IMG/VR virus record: IMGVR_UViG_2657245124_000006
Strand: one strand, 5' to 3'
Origin: a virus
Taxonomy: Duplodnaviria; Heunggongvirae; Uroviricota; Caudoviricetes
Length of the DNA: 24,063 bases
Numbering within the stretch: position 1 is the stretch's first letter; the number at the start of each line of letters is the position of its first letter. Below, piece after piece: positions 4,572 through 11,668 of the stretch. The position numbers and the translations under genes were made by a program. Below the pieces are notes generated by a model. It did no database searches. It saw only the letters and a program-made list of their open reading frames with translations, and had not been told where the DNA came from.

Positions 4572-4798
4572 TGGCTGATGCAATGGATCTCGTACAGCAG
4601 CGCGTTGAAGAAGAACGCCAGCGCCATATCCGTGCTGCCCGTGCCAAAACACCGGGCGTGTCTCGCGTGCTTTGTATTGAATGTGAAGCGCCAATTCCGC
4701 CAGCACGCCGCCGCGCCATTCCTGGAGTGCAGCTTTGCATTACCTGCCAGGAAATCGCAGAGCTGAAAGGCAAACATTACAACGGAGGTGCTGTATGA
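4571..4798 (+). CDS. TraR/DksA-family C4 zinc-finger protein
   Basis: 75 aa; 'CIECEAPIPPARRRAIPGVQLCITC' gives C-x2-C-x17-C-x2-C, the TraR/DksA spacing. ATG at 4571. Confidence 0.8.
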   Translation: MADAMDLVQQRVEEERQRHIRAARAKTPGVSRVLCIECEAPIPPARRRAIPGVQLCITCQEIAELKGKHYNGGAV

Positions 4799-5652
4799 GC
4801 ACCATCCTGAAATGGGCGGGTAATAAAACCGCCATTATGTCCGAACTGAAAAAATACCTTCCTGCTGGCCCGCGACTGGTTGAACCTTTCGCGGGTTCTT
4901 GTGCTGTGATGATGGCGACGGATTACCCCAGCTATCTGGTTGCGGATATTAATCCTGATTTAATCAACCTCTATAAAAAGATTGCCGCTGATTGCGAAGC
5001 GTTTATATCTCGTGCCAGAGTTTTATTTGAGGAAGCAAACAGTGAGCTGGCTTATTACAACATAAGACAGGAGTTTAATTACTCAACTGAAATTACTGAT
5101 TTCATGAAGGCGATATATTTCCTGTATCTCAATCGTCACGGTTACCGTGGTTTATGTCGCTATAACAAGAGCGGGCATTTCAACATTCCCTACGGTAATT
5201 ATAAAAATCCGTATTTCCCTGAAAAAGAAATTCGCGCATTTGCAGAGAAAGCCCCGCGGGCAACGTTTATCTGCGCCAGCTTTGATGAAACGCTGGCGAT
5301 GTTGAAGGCGGGGGATGTGGTGTATTGCGATCCGCCGTATGACGGTACGTTTTCCGGCTATCACACTGATGGTTTCACTGAAGATGACCAGTATCACCTG
5401 GCATCCGTTCTTGAACATCGGTCATCAGAAGGTCATCCGGTCATTGTTTCTAACAGTGACACATCCCTGATTCGTTCGCTGTATCGCAATTTCACTCACC
5501 ACTACATCAAGGCAAAACGCAGCATCGGCGTGTCGGCTGGCGAGAGTAAATCTGCAACAGAAATCATTGCTGTTTCCGGGGCGCGCTGCTGGGTGGGATT
5601 TGATCCTTCGCGTGGCGTGGATAGTTCTGCTGTGTACGAGGTGCGTGTATGA
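4795..5652 (+). CDS. dam: DNA adenine N6-methyltransferase, Dam (D12) family
   Basis: 285 aa from ATG at 4795 (GGAGG ribosome-binding site). Motif I-like '[10 protein letters not shown]' and catalytic 'DPPY' ('YCDPPYDGT'). Start overlaps the upstream stop (ATGA); stop overlaps the repA start. Confidence 0.88.
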
Positions 5653-8063
5653 GTCATGCCGATATGAGCGACTCTAGCGGCTTTAACGAGGCCGCTGCAG
5701 CATTTTCATGGAACGGCCCGAAAAAGGCCATAAACCCTTATCTGGACCCGGCGGAAGTTGCGCCGGTTTCTGCGCTTTCAAACCTGATCACTCTGTATGC
5801 TGCCGATAACGAGCAGGAACAGCTGCGCCGCGAGGAATTGAGTGAACAGGTCTGGGAGCGTTATTTCTTTAATGAATCCCGTGATCCTGTCCAGCGCGAA
5901 ATGGAGCAGGATAAGCTCATTAGTCGGGCAAAGCTGGCGCATGAGCAGCAGCGTTTTAACCCGGACATGGTCATTCTGGCGGACGTCAGCGCCCAGCCCA
6001 CCCACATCAGCAAGCCGCTGATGCAACGTATCGAATACTTCAGCAGCCTGGGCAGGCCAAAGGCTTATTCCCGCTATTTGCGTGAGACGATTAAGCCATG
6101 TCTGGAGCGACTGGATTGTGTACGCGACAGTCAGCTATCTACTTCTTTCCGTTTTATGGCAAGCCATCAAGGGCTGGAGGGCCTGCTGATCCTGCCTGAA
6201 ATGAGTCAGGATCAGGTGAAACGCCTGTCCACCCTGGTAGCTGCGCATATGAGCATGTGTCTTGAGGCCGCTTGTGGTGATTTGTATACCAACGATGACG
6301 TAAAGCCAGAAGAAATCCGCAAGACATGGGAAAAGGTGGCAGCGGAAACCCTGCGTCTGGATGTTATCCCGCCTGCGTTTGAGAAACTTCGTCGGAAAAG
6401 AAACCGCCGCAAACCTGTGCCCTATGAACTCATACCGGGTTCGCTGGCACGTATGCTTTGCGCCGACTGGTGGTATCGAAAATTGTGGAAGATGCGTTGC
6501 GAATGGCGGGAAGAGCAGTTGCGTGCTGTCTGTCTGGTCAGCAAAAAAGCATCTCCCTATGTCAGCTATGAAGCCGTGATGCATAAACGTGAGCAGCGCC
6601 GCAAGTCGCTGGAGTTTTTCCGTTCTCATGAACTGGTGAACGAAGACGGAGACACGCTGGATATGGAAGATGTGGTAAACGCCAGCAGCAGCAACCCGGC
6701 ACATCGCCGCAATGAGATGATGGCCTGCGTTAAAGGTCTGGAGCTTATCGCGGAAATGCGCGGTGACTGCGCCGTTTTCTACACCATCACATGTCCGTCA
6801 CGTTTCCATTCCACGCTCAATAACGGCAGGCCCAACCCGACCTGGACAAATGCGACGGTAAGACAAAGCAGCGATTATCTGGTCGGCATGTTTGCTGCAT
6901 TTCGTAAGGCGATGCACAAAACCGGGTTGCGCTGGTATGGCGTACGGGTGGCTGAGCCGCACCATGACGGTACTGTGCACTGGCATCTCATGTGTTTCAT
7001 GCGCAAAAAAGACCGCCGCGCCATTACTGCATTGTTGCGTAAGTTTGCCATCCGTGAAGACCGCGAGGAGCTGGGCAATAACACGGGCCCACGCTTTAAG
7101 TCTGAGCTGATAAACCCACGCAAAGGAACGCCGACAAGCTACATCGCAAAATACATCAGTAAGAACATTGACGGGCGTGGTCTGGCTGGCGAGATCAGCA
7201 AGGAAACGGGTAAATCCCTGCGTGATAACGCCGAATACGTTAATGCCTGGGCGTCTCTGCATCGTGTTCAGCAGTTCCGCTTCTTTGGTATTCCGGGGCG
7301 CCAGGCTTACCGTGAACTGCGATTGCTGGCTGGTCAGGCGGCAAGACAACAGGGTGACAAAAAAGCAGGTGCGCCGGTACTGGATGATCCGCGTCTTGAT
7401 GCCATCCTGGCTGCTGCTGATGCTGGTTGTTTTGCCACCTACATCATGAAGCAGGGCGGCGTACTGGTTCCCCGCAAATATCACCTTATCAGAACAGCTT
7501 ATGAAATTAACGAAGAGCCGACTGCCTATGGCGATCACGGTATTCGTATTTATGGCATCTGGTCACCCATTTCAGAGGGCAAGATCTGCACTCATGCAGT
7601 GAAGTGGAAAATGGTTCGTAAGGCCGTTGACGTTCAGGAGGCGGTAGCCGACCAGGGCGCTTGCGCCCCTTGGACTCGTGGCAATAACTGTCCCCTTGCT
7701 GAAAATTTGTACCAACAAGGGAAAGACAAATCAGCTGATGGGGGCTCCAGAACGGACATTACCCGCATGGATGACAAGGAATTGCACGATTACCTGCACA
7801 GTATGAGCAAAAAAGATCGCCGGGAGCTGGCAGCAAGGTTGCGCTTGGTGAAACCGAAACGGCGTAAAGACTACAAACAGCGAATTACAGATCATCAGCA
7901 TCAGCAGCTCGTCTATGAACTGAAGTCCAGAGGATTTGATGGCAGCGAGAAAGAAGTCGATTTGCTCCTTCGCGGTGGCAGTATTCCGTCAGGAGCAGGC
8001 TTGCGTATCTTCTATCGGAACCAGCGTTTGCGGGAAGATGATAAGTGGCGGAACCTGTATTAA
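5649..8063 (+). CDS. A: Replication initiation protein, P2 gpA-like rolling-circle HUH endonuclease
   Basis: 804 aa. HUH-like 'VHWHLMCF' and two-tyrosine motif '[12 protein letters not shown]'. Position matches P2 gene A. Confidence 0.85.
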
Positions 8064-8216: not shown

Positions 8217-8405
8217 ATGCAGGACTATTTTTTGGAGTCTTTGAAGCTCCAGCGCATTGATTTTTTTCTTAAGCTTGTAGCGGCTAGTGAGTGTAGTGAT
8301 GAAGAGAAGGGGCTGGCTTTGCAGTGGGTTTCTGAACTAACAGATGAACTCATGGCAAAAATCAGAACCCACGAATACAACCGCTCAATGGATGTCATCA
8401 GTTGA
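8217..8405 (+). CDS. Small hypothetical protein (62 aa), first gene of the SOS module
   Basis: ATG at 8217 with GGAGGAAAG ribosome-binding site. The track ORF from 8115 would read through the promoter and LexA box. Confidence 0.5.
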   Translation: MQDYFLESLKLQRIDFFLKLVAASECSDEEKGLALQWVSELTDELMAKIRTHEYNRSMDVIS

Positions 8406-8415
8406 GGTGACTTTT

Positions 8416-8649
8416 ATGCGCATTGAAATAATGATCGATAAAGAGCAGAAGATTAGCCAGTCTATCCTGGACGCCCTTGAATCCGAGCTTTACCGCAATC
8501 TGCGCCCCCTGTATCCCAAAACGGTAATTCGTATCCGCAAAGGTAGCTCTAACGGTGTGGAACTGACCGGACTGCAACTGGACGAAGAAAGAAAACAAGT
8601 GATGAAAATTATGCAGAAGGTGTGGGAAGACGACAGCTGGCTGCATTAA
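8416..8649 (+). CDS. dinI: DinI-family protein
   Basis: 77 aa from ATG at 8416 (GAGGTGA ribosome-binding site). 'MRIEIMIDKEQ...LDALESEL...ERKQVMKIMQKVWEDDSWLH' aligns with E. coli DinI as recalled ('MRIEVTIAK...IDALAGEL...DKQRISEILQETWESADDW'). Confidence 0.85.
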   Translation: MRIEIMIDKEQKISQSILDALESELYRNLRPLYPKTVIRIRKGSSNGVELTGLQLDEERKQVMKIMQKVWEDDSWLH

Positions 8650-8651
8650 GA

Positions 8652-8694
8652 AACGTTGCTGGCGTCTGAACTTGCTTCTGACGTCAGCAACGTT
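8652..8694. terminator. Strong hairpin after dinI; possible bidirectional terminator
   Basis: Arms AACGTTGCTGGCGTC and GACGTCAGCAACGTT form a 15-bp stem with one G.U pair and a 13-nt loop. No clean U-tract on the + strand; a short TCTT follows on the - strand. Confidence 0.4.
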
Positions 8695-8915
8695 GAACAA
8701 CTAGTTTAGTGGGGCATTAGTCATGGGGTAAAATACAGTAACCATTATTTTCACTTCCGCTCAGATTTAACCGAACGTTAGTTTTGCTACGTATGATGGG
8801 CTGCAAATTACCTTTTGGGATTTGTGATAGATACGAAAATCCTATTAGATGCTTGTTAGACCGGAAGCGCCACTTCGAACGAAAAGTAATGGCCACTTAT
8901 GCCGGTTTAAAAGCC

Positions 8916-9446
8916 TTAACCTTGTATAGTTATTTGAATATTTTCTTCATTGACACCAAAGTATAGGGCTAGCCCTGCTTTTGCCTCCTGAAGTGTTAAC
9001 GGCTTAACTACATTTTCTTCTTCTTCTTCGTACTCATCACCCGCTTGATCGACAATCGAATTAGTCGGGGTTAATTTTGGAAGAGCTTTAAATTCCAACT
9101 TGTCAGCCTCAATGCCAATGTCTTTGAGGTTGCGATAAGAAACGGGATTCCGATTGCCATCCCATTGTCCTGGGATGTCAATTTCAGCATAAGAATTGAT
9201 GTTTATGATCCAGCGTTTAGGGTTTTCTGGAGCCCTGCTTACTCCCGAGATTCGACCGATCATAAAAGCATGATGATGTTTTGCTTCTTGTGATCCCCAG
9301 TCCTTTCTCGAATTTTGTACACAAACTAAATATTCGTGCTTAGCTGCATGGCTGGCGTCAAGTCTCCATGCTTGGCTTCCCCCTGTGTTCAAAATCTCTG
9401 TTAAACCACGAGCAGTAAGTACAGTAATACAGTTGGTAGTAGCCAT
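8916..9446 (-). CDS. Uncharacterised 176-aa protein, cargo gene at the phage right end
   Basis: ATG at 9444-9446, no competing frame, AT-rich. Acidic patch 'DEYEEEEEN'. I recognise no family. Transcribed divergently from the OLD-like gene. Confidence 0.6.
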   Translation of the reverse strand: MATTNCITVLTARGLTEILNTGGSQAWRLDASHAAKHEYLVCVQNSRKDWGSQEAKHHHAFMIGRISGVSRAPENPKRWIININSYAEIDIPGQWDGNRNPVSYRNLKDIGIEADKLEFKALPKLTPTNSIVDQAGDEYEEEEENVVKPLTLQEAKAGLALYFGVNEENIQITIQG

Positions 9447-9763
9447 TGAATTGTGACCCCGTCTTTTTTAGAGAAATACTATTGATGAATGTAGTTTACG
9501 TATTTTTTTATTGAGTAGTCAAGTTAGTATTCTGCTCGTTATTGGCTGTTTTTTGAGTGTTGTGAGTTAGTACTTTGTGTAGTACCTCTTGGTTTATGAG
9601 GGTTAAATCTAAGTTATGACAAAGGGAGGCAGGGGGAACGCGCAGCGCAAGGTGTACAGGAGGCCATAAGGACTCACTTGAAGTAAGAAAAGATCGATAA
9701 AGCAACAATGCATGTCTATGCCGCATGAATTCGCATGATCGTTTGAGGATCGTTTTAGCTGAG

Positions 9764-9791
9764 GCCCGCTAGGAATGGCGGGCTTTTGTTT
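9764..9791 (+). terminator. Rho-independent terminator
   Basis: GCCCGC - TAGGAATG - GCGGGC followed by TTTTGTTT. U-tract is on the + strand only. Confidence 0.6.
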
Positions 9792-9832
9792 ATGTCATGC
9801 AAGTGCATGAAAACCACTACATAAAGCGGGCA

Positions 9833-9851
9833 GGCGTGGCGGGGATACGAG
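9833..9851. other. Putative cos (cohesive-end) site of the P2/186 family
   Basis: GGCGTGGCGGGGATACGAG. The first 13 nt match the P2/186 cos motif GGCG(A/T)GGCGGGGA as I remember it. Located left of Q/P, where cos is expected. From memory, not a database hit. Confidence 0.45.
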
Positions 9852-9888
9852 CGCGCGCTGGGAGGTATAAGAATGAAGTACAATTAAC

Positions 9889-9916
9889 TTCACTTTGTTG
9901 AGTAAAATGCTATAAG
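9889..9916 (+). promoter_or_regulatory. Putative promoter of the OLD-like gene: TTCACT - 16 bp - TGcTATAAG
   Basis: -35-like and extended -10-like elements about 70 bp upstream of the 9983 start. Confidence 0.35.
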
Positions 9917-9982
9917 AATAATGCAAATTATTGAGTCCCATTAGTTCAAAACTTAGGGATATCTTATGTGAAAGGAGGTTAT

Positions 9983-11668
9983 ATGTTAGATAAATTGATT
10001 TTTAATTCAGGAAGTAATCCAACATCTAAATCTTCATTATCGGTTGACTTGACTCCATTGACAATTTTTGTGGGGCCGAATAATAGTGGTAAATCTAGAG
10101 CTTTAATCGATATAGAAAATCAACTGACAACCCGAAATGCAGCGCAGGGAGAAGTAATAAAACAGATATTAATCAAACCACTTTCTGAGGATGAAGCAAA
10201 AAAGGAAATTGAATCTTTACAAGTTGAGCCAAACCAGGATGAAAAGCATGCGGGGCATGTTGTTTTATCTAGGCTAAACCTCCGTGGTGAAGGAATATCT
10301 AGGATTCTAGTGTATTTGGATGGAATGTTAAGAGAATTCCAGCAACCCAATGAATTCAATCGGGAGCATCTATATCAATATTACTCGTTGCTGACTCTAA
10401 GGTTGGATGGTAGAAGTCGACTTTCCTTAACTTCAAGTCAAGGTTCATCCGATTTACAAGGAGAACCTACGAATAACCTTTCATTTCTTTTTAAAAATAA
10501 TAAAGCAAGGATGGAGCTAAGAGATATCGTTTTTGATGCTTTCGGGAAGTATCTTGTTATTGATCCAACAAATATAGGTTATCTTAGAATTCGTCTTTCT
10601 GAGCGCGCTCCTGAGACTGAACAAGAAGAAAGAGGTTGGGATGAAAAGTCAGTGCTTTTTCATTCAAAAGCGTCATTGATTACAGAGGCTAGCGATGGTG
10701 TTAATGCTTTTGTTGGGATGATGATTTCGCTGATAGTTGGCTCACCAAAGGTGACTCTAATTGATGAGCCGGAAGCTTTTTTACATCCATCCTTATGCTC
10801 AAAGTTAGGAAAGGAAATATCTAGGATTAGTGCTCATAGTAATAAAAATGTGTTTATTTCAACGCATAGCGCTAATTTTTTAATGGGTTGTGTTCAAGGT
10901 AAAGTGCCATTGAATATAGTTAGGCTTACTTTTGATGGTAAATCTGGTACGTCTAGATTACTAACAAAGGAACAATTGACGCCGCTCATGAGAAATCCGT
11001 TATTAAGATCTATTGGTGTGCTAAACGCATTGTTTTATAATTACGTTGTCGTTACTGAAGCGGATGCAGATAGGGCATTTTATCAAGAGATTAATGAGCG
11101 CTTATTGGCTGCTGGAGATCCTCGGGGTATTGAGGGATGCCTGTTTTTGAATGCTCAAAACAAACAAACTGTTTGGGATATAGTAAAACCCCTTCGTGAG
11201 CTAGGTATTCCCTGCGTTGGAGTGGTAGATATCGATATATTGAAGGAGGGAGGAGTTGTATGGAAAAAACCAATGCTTGGAGCTTTTTTTCCAGAAATGA
11301 AGCATGAAACTTTAGGTTTGGAAAGACAAAAGCTTTTTCAAGCCTTCAAAAATACGAATAAAAATATGAAGACAGATGGGGGCCTCTCCTTGTTATCGGG
11401 TTCAGATAAAACCGCCTGCTCTGAGTTTTTTAAATCCCTTTCAGATTATGGGGTTTTTGTCGTTCCAACGGGCGAGATCGAGTCTTGGTTGCAAAATCTT
11501 GAAATAGGTCGAGGAAAGAATACTTGGTTAACAAGTATTTTCGAGAAGATGGGGGATGATCCTAATGATGAATCATATGTGAAGCCATCTGAAGGTGATG
11601 TTTGGGATTTTATTGGGAATATAAAGCACTGGTTGGTTAACCCTGAAAGGAAGGGTATTCCCGAGTGA
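9983..11668 (+). CDS. OLD-family / AbiL-like predicted nuclease (ABC-type ATPase plus C-terminal Toprim-like domain)
   Basis: 561 aa from ATG at 9983 (AGGAGG ribosome-binding site; track start at 9968 is GTG). Walker A 'GPNNSGKS', Walker B/D-loop 'VTLIDEPEAFLHPS', H-loop-like 'ISTHSAN'. C-terminal 'VVVTEADAD' and 'VGVVDIDIL' fit a Toprim E...DxD pattern. Very AT-rich. Confidence 0.8.
   Translation: MLDKLIFNSGSNPTSKSSLSVDLTPLTIFVGPNNSGKSRALIDIENQLTTRNAAQGEVIKQILIKPLSEDEAKKEIESLQVEPNQDEKHAGHVVLSRLNLRGEGISRILVYLDGMLREFQQPNEFNREHLYQYYSLLTLRLDGRSRLSLTSSQGSSDLQGEPTNNLSFLFKNNKARMELRDIVFDAFGKYLVIDPTNIGYLRIRLSERAPETEQEERGWDEKSVLFHSKASLITEASDGVNAFVGMMISLIVGSPKVTLIDEPEAFLHPSLCSKLGKEISRISAHSNKNVFISTHSANFLMGCVQGKVPLNIVRLTFDGKSGTSRLLTKEQLTPLMRNPLLRSIGVLNALFYNYVVVTEADADRAFYQEINERLLAAGDPRGIEGCLFLNAQNKQTVWDIVKPLRELGIPCVGVVDIDILKEGGVVWKKPMLGAFFPEMKHETLGLERQKLFQAFKNTNKNMKTDGGLSLLSGSDKTACSEFFKSLSDYGVFVVPTGEIESWLQNLEIGRGKNTWLTSIFEKMGDDPNDESYVKPSEGDVWDFIGNIKHWLVNPERKGIPE

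Follow-up and report, generated by a model that had tools for sequence, protein, structure and literature searches.

The right end of a P2-like prophage of Escherichia coli raises the question of what a small protein without a named family does for the element that carries it. The window, which is the whole 24,063-nucleotide stretch of IMG/VR record IMGVR_UViG_2657245124_000006, is such a prophage, 100% identical over positions 8650-9970 to the chromosome of E. coli strain 1297KP, and the gene in question is an open reading frame (ORF) of 176 amino acids (aa) that is read leftward and is the last gene before the packaging site cos (Table 1). A preliminary description of the window took this ORF for cargo and proposed an undescribed accessory function for it, such as exclusion, abortive infection or anti-defence. 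Structure prediction supports well a description of the product as a stand-alone PUA-like protein, a putative reader, with a conserved C-terminal mini-module. Exclusion or anti-defence is the most sensible class of accessory function for the ORF, and the sequences point to a family role that probably lies in conflicts between mobile elements. The reality and position of the gene, the class of its fold, the pattern of its conservation, the lack of a fixed partner and the distribution among mobile elements are established here.

The ORF is a genuine, conserved gene because it is a coding sequence (CDS) in RefSeq, the exact protein is present on 970 public contigs, the ratio of nonsynonymous to synonymous substitution rates (dN/dS) against P2-like homologues is 0.09-0.18, and an exhaustive profile search recovered 1001 family clusters at 50% identity with E<=1e-3 (769 with E<=1e-10). 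The same evidence, with an uninterrupted frame from ATG to stop, bears out its early characterization as a clean ORF. The RefSeq entry is annotated 'hypothetical protein' in the identical E. coli 1297KP prophage (100% match to the CDS), and so were all 74 relatives found by a first homology search. Family members are almost all 160-190 aa long and matched over their full length; a further deep search added nothing beyond canonical members labelled 'hypothetical', and neither the accessions nor the PHROG turned up in literature searches. The protein belongs to PHROG 37247 (phrog_37247; full-length match, E 6e-94), a group without annotated function that adds nothing on mechanism, and it does not appear in the supplement of PMC9122126 as far as that was covered, one file of it in part. 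The ORF has a G+C content of ~40-43%, compared with 52-55% in the phage core, which fits acquired cargo and, together with the location of the ORF in the right-end slot, agrees with the cargo position first assigned to it.

An AlphaFold2 model built on 50 homologues (predicted local distance difference test score (pLDDT) 83.8, predicted template modelling score (pTM) 0.67) contains a confident strand-rich domain in residues 1-122, in which residues 5-110 fold into six strands and three short helices, and a tail helix in residues 152-163 (pLDDT 80-87). The beta-rich N-terminal ~110 aa, the acidic linker DEYEEEEEN (which lies within disordered residues 126-144 of the model) and the short C-terminal helical tail that had been read from the letters alone are thus all present in the model. 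The linker is net negative in 44 of the 50 homologues and has a median length of 21 residues, and its length and sequence vary across the family. Comparison of the model with known folds gave scores of 7.8 for PH1033 (EVE), 7.3 for YTHDC1, 7.3 for VcaM4I (an EVE-HNH enzyme), 6.9 for the 5-hydroxymethylcytosine (5hmC)-specific PD-T4-3, 6.9 for DrmA, 6.4 for ASCH, 6.2 for THYN1, and 5.4 and 5.1 for McrB N-domains; Foldseek gave weak scores to the same families, the best being TRIP4 ASCH (E 5e-3). The N-terminal domain (N-domain) of the predicted model has the small pseudo-barrel fold of the PUA-like superfamily, and its assignment as a PUA-like barrel of the ASCH/EVE/YTH type is well supported by these two methods, the matches being remote.

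No such relationship is detectable in sequence. Searches of Pfam, NCBIfam and PADLOC with the 176-aa protein matched no family (zero families at E<=1 in PADLOC-DB v2.0.0); the Pfam models EVE (PF01878), YTH (PF04146) and ASCH (PF04266) matched none of the 50 homologues even at E<=10; sequence and profile searches of the PDB gave no significant match and no match to a PUA family; alignment of a 150-sequence profile with YTHDC1 by hhalign gave a probability of 0.05, which is no similarity; and a search of viral folds in BFVD gave only two weak, uncharacterised matches. Matches to Gp8 and baseplate proteins (E 0.03-0.11) were rejected as noise, and no phage structural, replication or antirepressor family, any of which would have argued against an accessory function, turned up for the ORF. 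Because the fold link is undetectable at the level of sequence profiles, the family is a remote, separate branch within the PUA-like superfamily. The earlier statement that the protein could not be placed in any family therefore holds for named sequence families but not for the fold. The EVE, YTH and ASCH domains of PH1033, YTHDC1, THYN1 and TRIP4 share the fold with no detectable profile similarity; they belong to cellular housekeeping proteins, whereas the family of the window protein is borne by mobile elements and has its own C-terminal helix-strand tail, and the long loop of YTHDC1 that bears W428 and L439 is absent from the window protein. Neither the fold nor the general concept of a modified-base reader is new; the family is unnamed, large and uncharacterised.

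Counted over 150 diverse family representatives, the conserved residues of the N-domain are T11 (95%), S/T24 (97%), W27 (98%), N45 (95%), H57 (90%), F61 (97%), R78 (98%), W95 (97%), R99 (91%), P101 (99%) and Y104 (99%), and those of the tail are A155 (93%), K/R156 (95%) and I172 (90%). No acidic residue of the N-domain is conserved at >=80% in these representatives, which speaks for a pocket that binds a ligand and against metal-dependent or acid-base catalysis. Such a pocket would probably be formed by T11, S24, W27, N45, H57, R78, W95, R99 and Y104, and a conserved set dominated by aromatic and arginine residues is typical of readers. A mean-field coupling analysis of 383 sequences (effective number 273) recovered the expected strand pairings and a pocket-like cluster that joins R13/G14/L15, Q25/A26, Q44/N45 and S52/A55/H57, which would fit specificity-determining positions around an invariant core. 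Couplings of the tail are mainly internal (A155-I172, L159-I170, F163-G176) and weak towards the N-domain, and a search of 6188 flanking ORFs with a tail-only profile gave no separate occurrence.

Among the best 150 representatives, the tail is occasionally replaced by other domains: P0200 joins the N-domain to DUF3427 and HNH, P0212 joins it to AbiTii, and P0224 joins it to a MazE/AbrB-like domain. P0212 was found on two independent contigs, where it adjoins an Abi_2-like gene. These fusions suggest, if thinly, that a defence effector can use the N-domain as its sensor. The type IV enzymes that have PUA-type sensors (VcaM4I with EVE-HNH, PD-T4-3 with GIY-YIG, and McrB with its N-domains) couple them to a nuclease or NTPase, but the window protein has neither in itself or in an adjacent gene, and so it cannot restrict DNA alone. 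None of the domains that define a type IV restriction enzyme (HNH, PD-(D/E)XK, GIY-YIG or a McrB-type NTPase) is present in the protein or in a conserved neighbour, and HNH is carried only by one rare relative, P0200. An architecture of reader plus tail without an effector is unusual.

The family is not specific to phages, and small mobilizable plasmids hold most of its database copies. PLSDB contains 193 plasmid records with a family member, of which 163 are mobilizable and most are 4-9 kb in size; the carriers include ColE1-type plasmids of Enterobacter, Salmonella, Klebsiella, Citrobacter and E. coli, and Acinetobacter accounts for 60 records, including the pRAY-type plasmid pABLAC2 (aadB). 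By tblastn the gene was found in 2 of 50,697 phage records. Specific locations of family members are 348-kb Brevundimonas phages, the transfer (tra) region of an integrative and conjugative element (ICE) of Pseudomonas, an integrase-flanked islet, another P2-like prophage and a Pectobacterium islet beside ParDE, and the taxonomic range covers many bacterial phyla and one thaumarchaeon. Comparison of 54 family groups, defined at 80% identity and taken from viral and genomic collections, gave no ORF cluster within 5 kb that was common to more than four of them. The flanks have the usual content of mobile elements, namely integrases, ParA, Rep3, resolvase and phage structural genes, with a small number of defence genes such as AbiU, AIPR and an SNF2 helicase, and methyltransferases and modification genes are not enriched among the flanking ORFs. 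The gene is thus well supported as independent cargo of many kinds of mobile element, without a fixed partner.

Several individual contexts deserve description. The only archaeal occurrence seen, in Candidatus Nitrosotalea (NZ_RCMB01000012.1; L074/L076), consists of two copies with equal profile scores ~12 kb apart on a 20-kb contig. In pABLAC2 of A. baumannii (L089), a 48%-identical member (1532-2017) is directly downstream of the relaxase gene, among few plasmid genes. In one clade of ColE1 plasmids (L088 1156-1746; L092, L093, L094, L046, L029), a homologue with ~62-74% identity is followed after 4-5 bp by a gene for a Sel1/TPR-repeat protein of ~195 aa, the 3' end of which is overlapped by an annotated NYN-domain CDS in L092. 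The two genes may form a clade-specific operon; as a general partner the Sel1-repeat protein was rejected, being confined to this single clade and absent from the window and most of the family. On a P2-like viral contig (L030 8001-8530) the gene is split into two overlapping ORFs by an apparent frameshift, and this copy would be an occasional pseudogene of the family.

Placement of cos confirms the position of the ORF. Both ends of the P2 genome were joined and aligned to the window, and positions 9803-9860 matched the P2 cos junction with 78% identity over 58 nt (E 2e-9). This longer alignment was needed because the P2 cos 19-mer has no match in the window at <=3 mismatches; the equivalent 19-mer of the window differs from it at 5 positions. 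With cos at 9833-9851, the ORF is the rightmost gene of the packaged genome, as the preliminary description had it, and its start codon is 387 bp from cos with no gene in between. A block of ~150 bp around cos (9709-9859) is conserved at 87-96% in P2-like phages of Yersinia, Salmonella and Klebsiella and both of its flanks are variable, from which it follows that two independent cargo slots abut one conserved packaging site; similarity to 7 of 8 E. coli prophages stops at ~9857-9870. Rousset et al. (PMC9122126) described a gpA-gpQ hotspot in P2-like phages, and the ORF falls inside it; among 5426 complete E. coli genomes, only 8 carry the ORF.

The slot is that of old and tin in P2, with which the ORF shares its leftward orientation beside cosR. 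Genes of P2-type lysogenic conversion are located between gene A and cosR, read leftward, dispensable and variable, and the ORF has all of these properties, its promoter being only a weak match to the consensus. P2 Tin and Old are likewise stand-alone cargo of low G+C, with no sequence or fold relationship to the window protein. The P2 old-tin mRNA begins ~150 bp inside cosR, and the promoter candidate upstream of the ORF matches the P2 leftward promoter in its position just inside cosR; shuffled sequence yields a mean of 3.4 sigma-70-like sites, so that the candidate is not above chance. The promoter originally attributed to the ORF is weakly supported by this one site. On the other side, the inverted repeat between the convergent dinI-like gene and the ORF probably terminates transcription in both directions and bounds the cargo module on the left. 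Downstream of the ORF, more distant P2-like loci retain similarity only to the right part of this repeat and the adjoining bases, the match there starting 6 bp past the stop codon. A 59-aa ORF just downstream (8717-8896) was rejected as a partner; the 200-bp stretch that contains it is absent in relatives.

Table 1. Coordinates of the gene, its predicted domains and the surrounding features of the window
Feature	Positions	Strand	Basis or remark
Complete CDS, 176 aa and stop, WP_000246368.1	8916..9446	-	ORF listing, ATG start
N-terminal domain, residues 1-122, PUA-like (ASCH/EVE/YTH-type) beta-barrel, predicted ligand-binding module	9081..9446	-	
Linker, residues 123-147, disordered, acidic (DEYEEEEEN)	9006..9080	-	pLDDT <50 at residues 126-144
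C-terminal tail, residues 148-176, conserved helix and strand mini-module PLTxxEAKxGLAxxFGVxxxxIxITIxG	8919..9005	-	
Sigma-70-like promoter candidate, TTGACT-18-TAAACT	9493..9522	-	47 nt 5' of ATG; consensus scan, 9/12 matches
Equivalent of the cos cohesive end, 19 nt (GGCGTGGCGGGGATACGAG)	9833..9851	+	P2 cosR/cosL junction alignment; right boundary of the slot against the OLD-like cargo
Inverted repeat, 19-nt arms, 5-nt loop, 89% complementary	8652..8694	.	Between convergent dinI-like gene and ORF
Replication endonuclease A	5649-8063	+	Local gene order
62-aa ORF, PHROG 698 (unknown function)	8217-8405	+	Local gene order
DinI-like gene	8416-8649	+	Local gene order
OLD-like ATPase-nuclease	9968/9983-11668	+	AAA_15/AAA_21 and OLD-like TOPRIM; PADLOC Old 1e-20
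Portal Q and terminase P	Beyond the OLD-like gene	-	Local gene order

Other features of the locus are listed for completeness. The PHROG 698 ORF and the DinI-like gene stand after gene A in the place of P2 orf91, and both are kept in related prophages. A 13-nt inverted repeat (8760-8772 and 9601-9613, 92% complementary, spacing 828 nt) brackets the ORF and could represent the ends of an inserted cassette, or chance. A scan of positions 8500-10100 with Rfam gave no match. A Dam-type DNA adenine methylase (4735-5652, plus strand) is encoded just upstream of gene A and has a homologue (70-100% identity) in 14 of 16 close P2-like loci, not all of which are complete; its co-occurrence with the ORF is lineage background and uninformative.

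The OLD-like ATPase-nuclease on the other side of cos had been considered a possible partner of the 176-aa protein. The link does not survive a check of co-occurrence: of the 16 close P2-like loci with the ORF, only 2 also have the OLD-like gene, cos lies between the two genes, and in other ORF-carrying prophages the slot between cos and Q is filled by a STAS-like trio or by a hypothetical and HIRAN pair (L002, L003). The same OLD-like protein (WP_057698812) occurs in another prophage beside a HEPN_LA2681 gene, without the ORF (PMC9122126 supplement). A two-gene system was rejected on these four grounds. The OLD-like gene, being located between cos and Q, is at the left packaged end, and P2's own old is at the right end.

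The preferred reading of the 176-aa protein, tentative but the foremost of those considered, is a non-catalytic role in exclusion or defence. Three elements of this reading are inferred: what kind of ligand is bound, what the tail does, and whether the effect is defence rather than counter-defence. The PUA-like N-domain would recognise a nucleobase that is most likely modified and that belongs to DNA, to RNA or to a free nucleotide, and the flexible acidic linker would connect it to the conserved 29-residue helix-strand tail, which probably mediates self-association or docking onto another protein, since it occupies the place of the effector domains in the rare fused relatives. The gene, which occupies the lysogenic-conversion slot of old and tin, would be a 'moron', a piece of cargo that moves independently, with leftward transcription that starts just inside cos. 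Protein made from the prophage, or from multicopy plasmids in the case of relatives, would bind the modified nucleic acid of an incoming competitor, which would then be blocked stoichiometrically or via a recruited host factor, so that the protein would be a Tin-like, non-nucleolytic exclusion or defence factor. P2 Tin poisons a T-even protein and needs no catalysis to do so, which shows that a binder alone, encoded in the old/tin slot, can exclude phages. Exclusion or defence is favoured because defence cargo dominates the slot, because the fused relatives bear defence effectors and because Tin provides this precedent of a binder without further activity.

Several observations weigh against a role in exclusion or defence. 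The protein has no effector domain and no conserved partner, and how binding alone would stop a competitor is unexplained; it has no PADLOC match, and only a handful of defence genes are found among 102 flanking ORFs. A role in protecting the host is less natural in the 348-kb Brevundimonas phages. The N-domain is near neutral (median pI ~7), and thus the protein is no obvious DNA-coating protein. Both fusions with defence effectors are narrowly based: P0200 is a single 1.9-kb contig, and P0212 is the sole fusion of its kind among 120 listed of 155 relatives, the others being AbiTii proteins of 256-326 aa without the N-domain.

The same features can be read in the opposite direction, and a somewhat unlikely second explanation is that the lone reader competes with modification-sensing immunity of the host, either shielding modified bases of its element from type IV enzymes or soaking up an alarm nucleotide such as N6-methyl-dAMP (m6dAMP). 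A sensor-type domain without an effector is what would be expected of a decoy or sponge; PUA-like domains are the m6dAMP sensors of Metis (10.1101/2025.11.05.686725) and PUA-Cal-HAD (10.64898/2026.01.15.699771); and the fusion of a related domain to HNH and DUF3427 suggests a ligand in common with type IV-like nucleases. MisA of Metis and PUA-Cal-HAD use a PUA-like pocket as a sensor of a small ligand in phage conflict, a likeness drawn from their descriptions rather than from sequence, but the MisA sensor is fused to a NAD+ diphosphatase and that of PUA-Cal to a calcineurin-like phosphoesterase, both with partner genes, and the window protein has neither. Sponges of the Tad1/Tad2/Acb2 type, which are small oligomeric sequesterers of nucleotides, are compatible with the window protein in small size and lack of an effector, but no sequence or fold match to them was present among the PDB matches. 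The carriers must establish themselves in new hosts, as indicated by the mobilizable majority of the plasmid records (163/193), the ICE transfer region and the 348-kb phages, and of the five annotated plasmids with listed mobilization genes, four have the family gene in the same rotational sense as these, a weak point in favour. Against this explanation, the family is rare in sequenced phages (the two tblastn records above), its flanks show no enrichment of methyltransferases or modification genes, and in the slot of P2-like phages, where defence cargo dominates, known anti-defence genes are few. Small plasmids leave the host DNA undegraded and have no evident need of a sponge for m6dAMP, and a shield made after entry comes late relative to restriction. 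In its broadest form, which is less probable again, the family would be a widespread, unrecognised counter-defence device of plasmids, ICEs and phages, a free-standing immune-sensor fold that mops up a modified-nucleotide alarm or masks bases from type IV restriction, with the tail driving assembly of a high-capacity oligomer.

Enzymatic and housekeeping or regulatory roles are less likely than either defence or counter-defence. Binding to nucleic acid of the carrier element itself, such as hemimethylated sites or a regulatory RNA, with tuning of replication, copy number or expression and no role in conflict, might be expected of a gene that is one of only ~5-8 on many ColE1-type, pRAY-type and MOBV plasmids of 4-9 kb, some of which (the pRAY type) have no identified rep gene (PMC6160057), and ASCH and YTH domains generally bind RNA or DNA. 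Such a role is nonetheless decidedly improbable: the gene is carried by unrelated replicons (RNA-primed ColE1, RepM, Rep3, P2 rolling-circle and ICE), so that no single replication system needs it; in P2-like phages its slot is dispensable and rapidly swapped, and the gene is rare among complete E. coli genomes (8/5426); and the copy on L030 is frameshifted. Least probable of all is a catalytic PUA-like domain that removes or alters a base modification or cuts RNA, as do some ASCH proteins (the N4-acetylcytidine (ac4C) amidohydrolase YqfB, the RNase ZmASCH and the glucosyl-5hmC hydrolase BapA), since YqfB-type catalysis uses lysine and glutamate, BapA is reported to need an aspartate, the N-domain conserves no acidic residue at the 80% level, Pfam ASCH does not match, and the conserved residues, mostly aromatic and arginine, are reader-like.

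Modified bases and nucleotides are central signals in the conflict between phages and bacteria, as in type IV restriction, Metis, PUA-Cal-HAD and Brig glycosylases, and to our knowledge every characterised modified-base reader in phage conflict is wired to an effector. The family described here, with ~1000 clusters at 50% identity, is made up of predicted reader-only proteins that end in a short conserved tail, lacks a model in Pfam, NCBIfam and PADLOC, and rides the smallest mobilizable plasmids of Enterobacterales and Acinetobacter as well as the cargo hotspots of phages and ICEs. Knowledge of its ligand and of its direction of action would reveal either a new non-enzymatic mechanism of exclusion or the first decoy or sponge against modification-sensing immunity, and either outcome would explain why many small clinical plasmids devote a sizeable part of their coding capacity to this gene.
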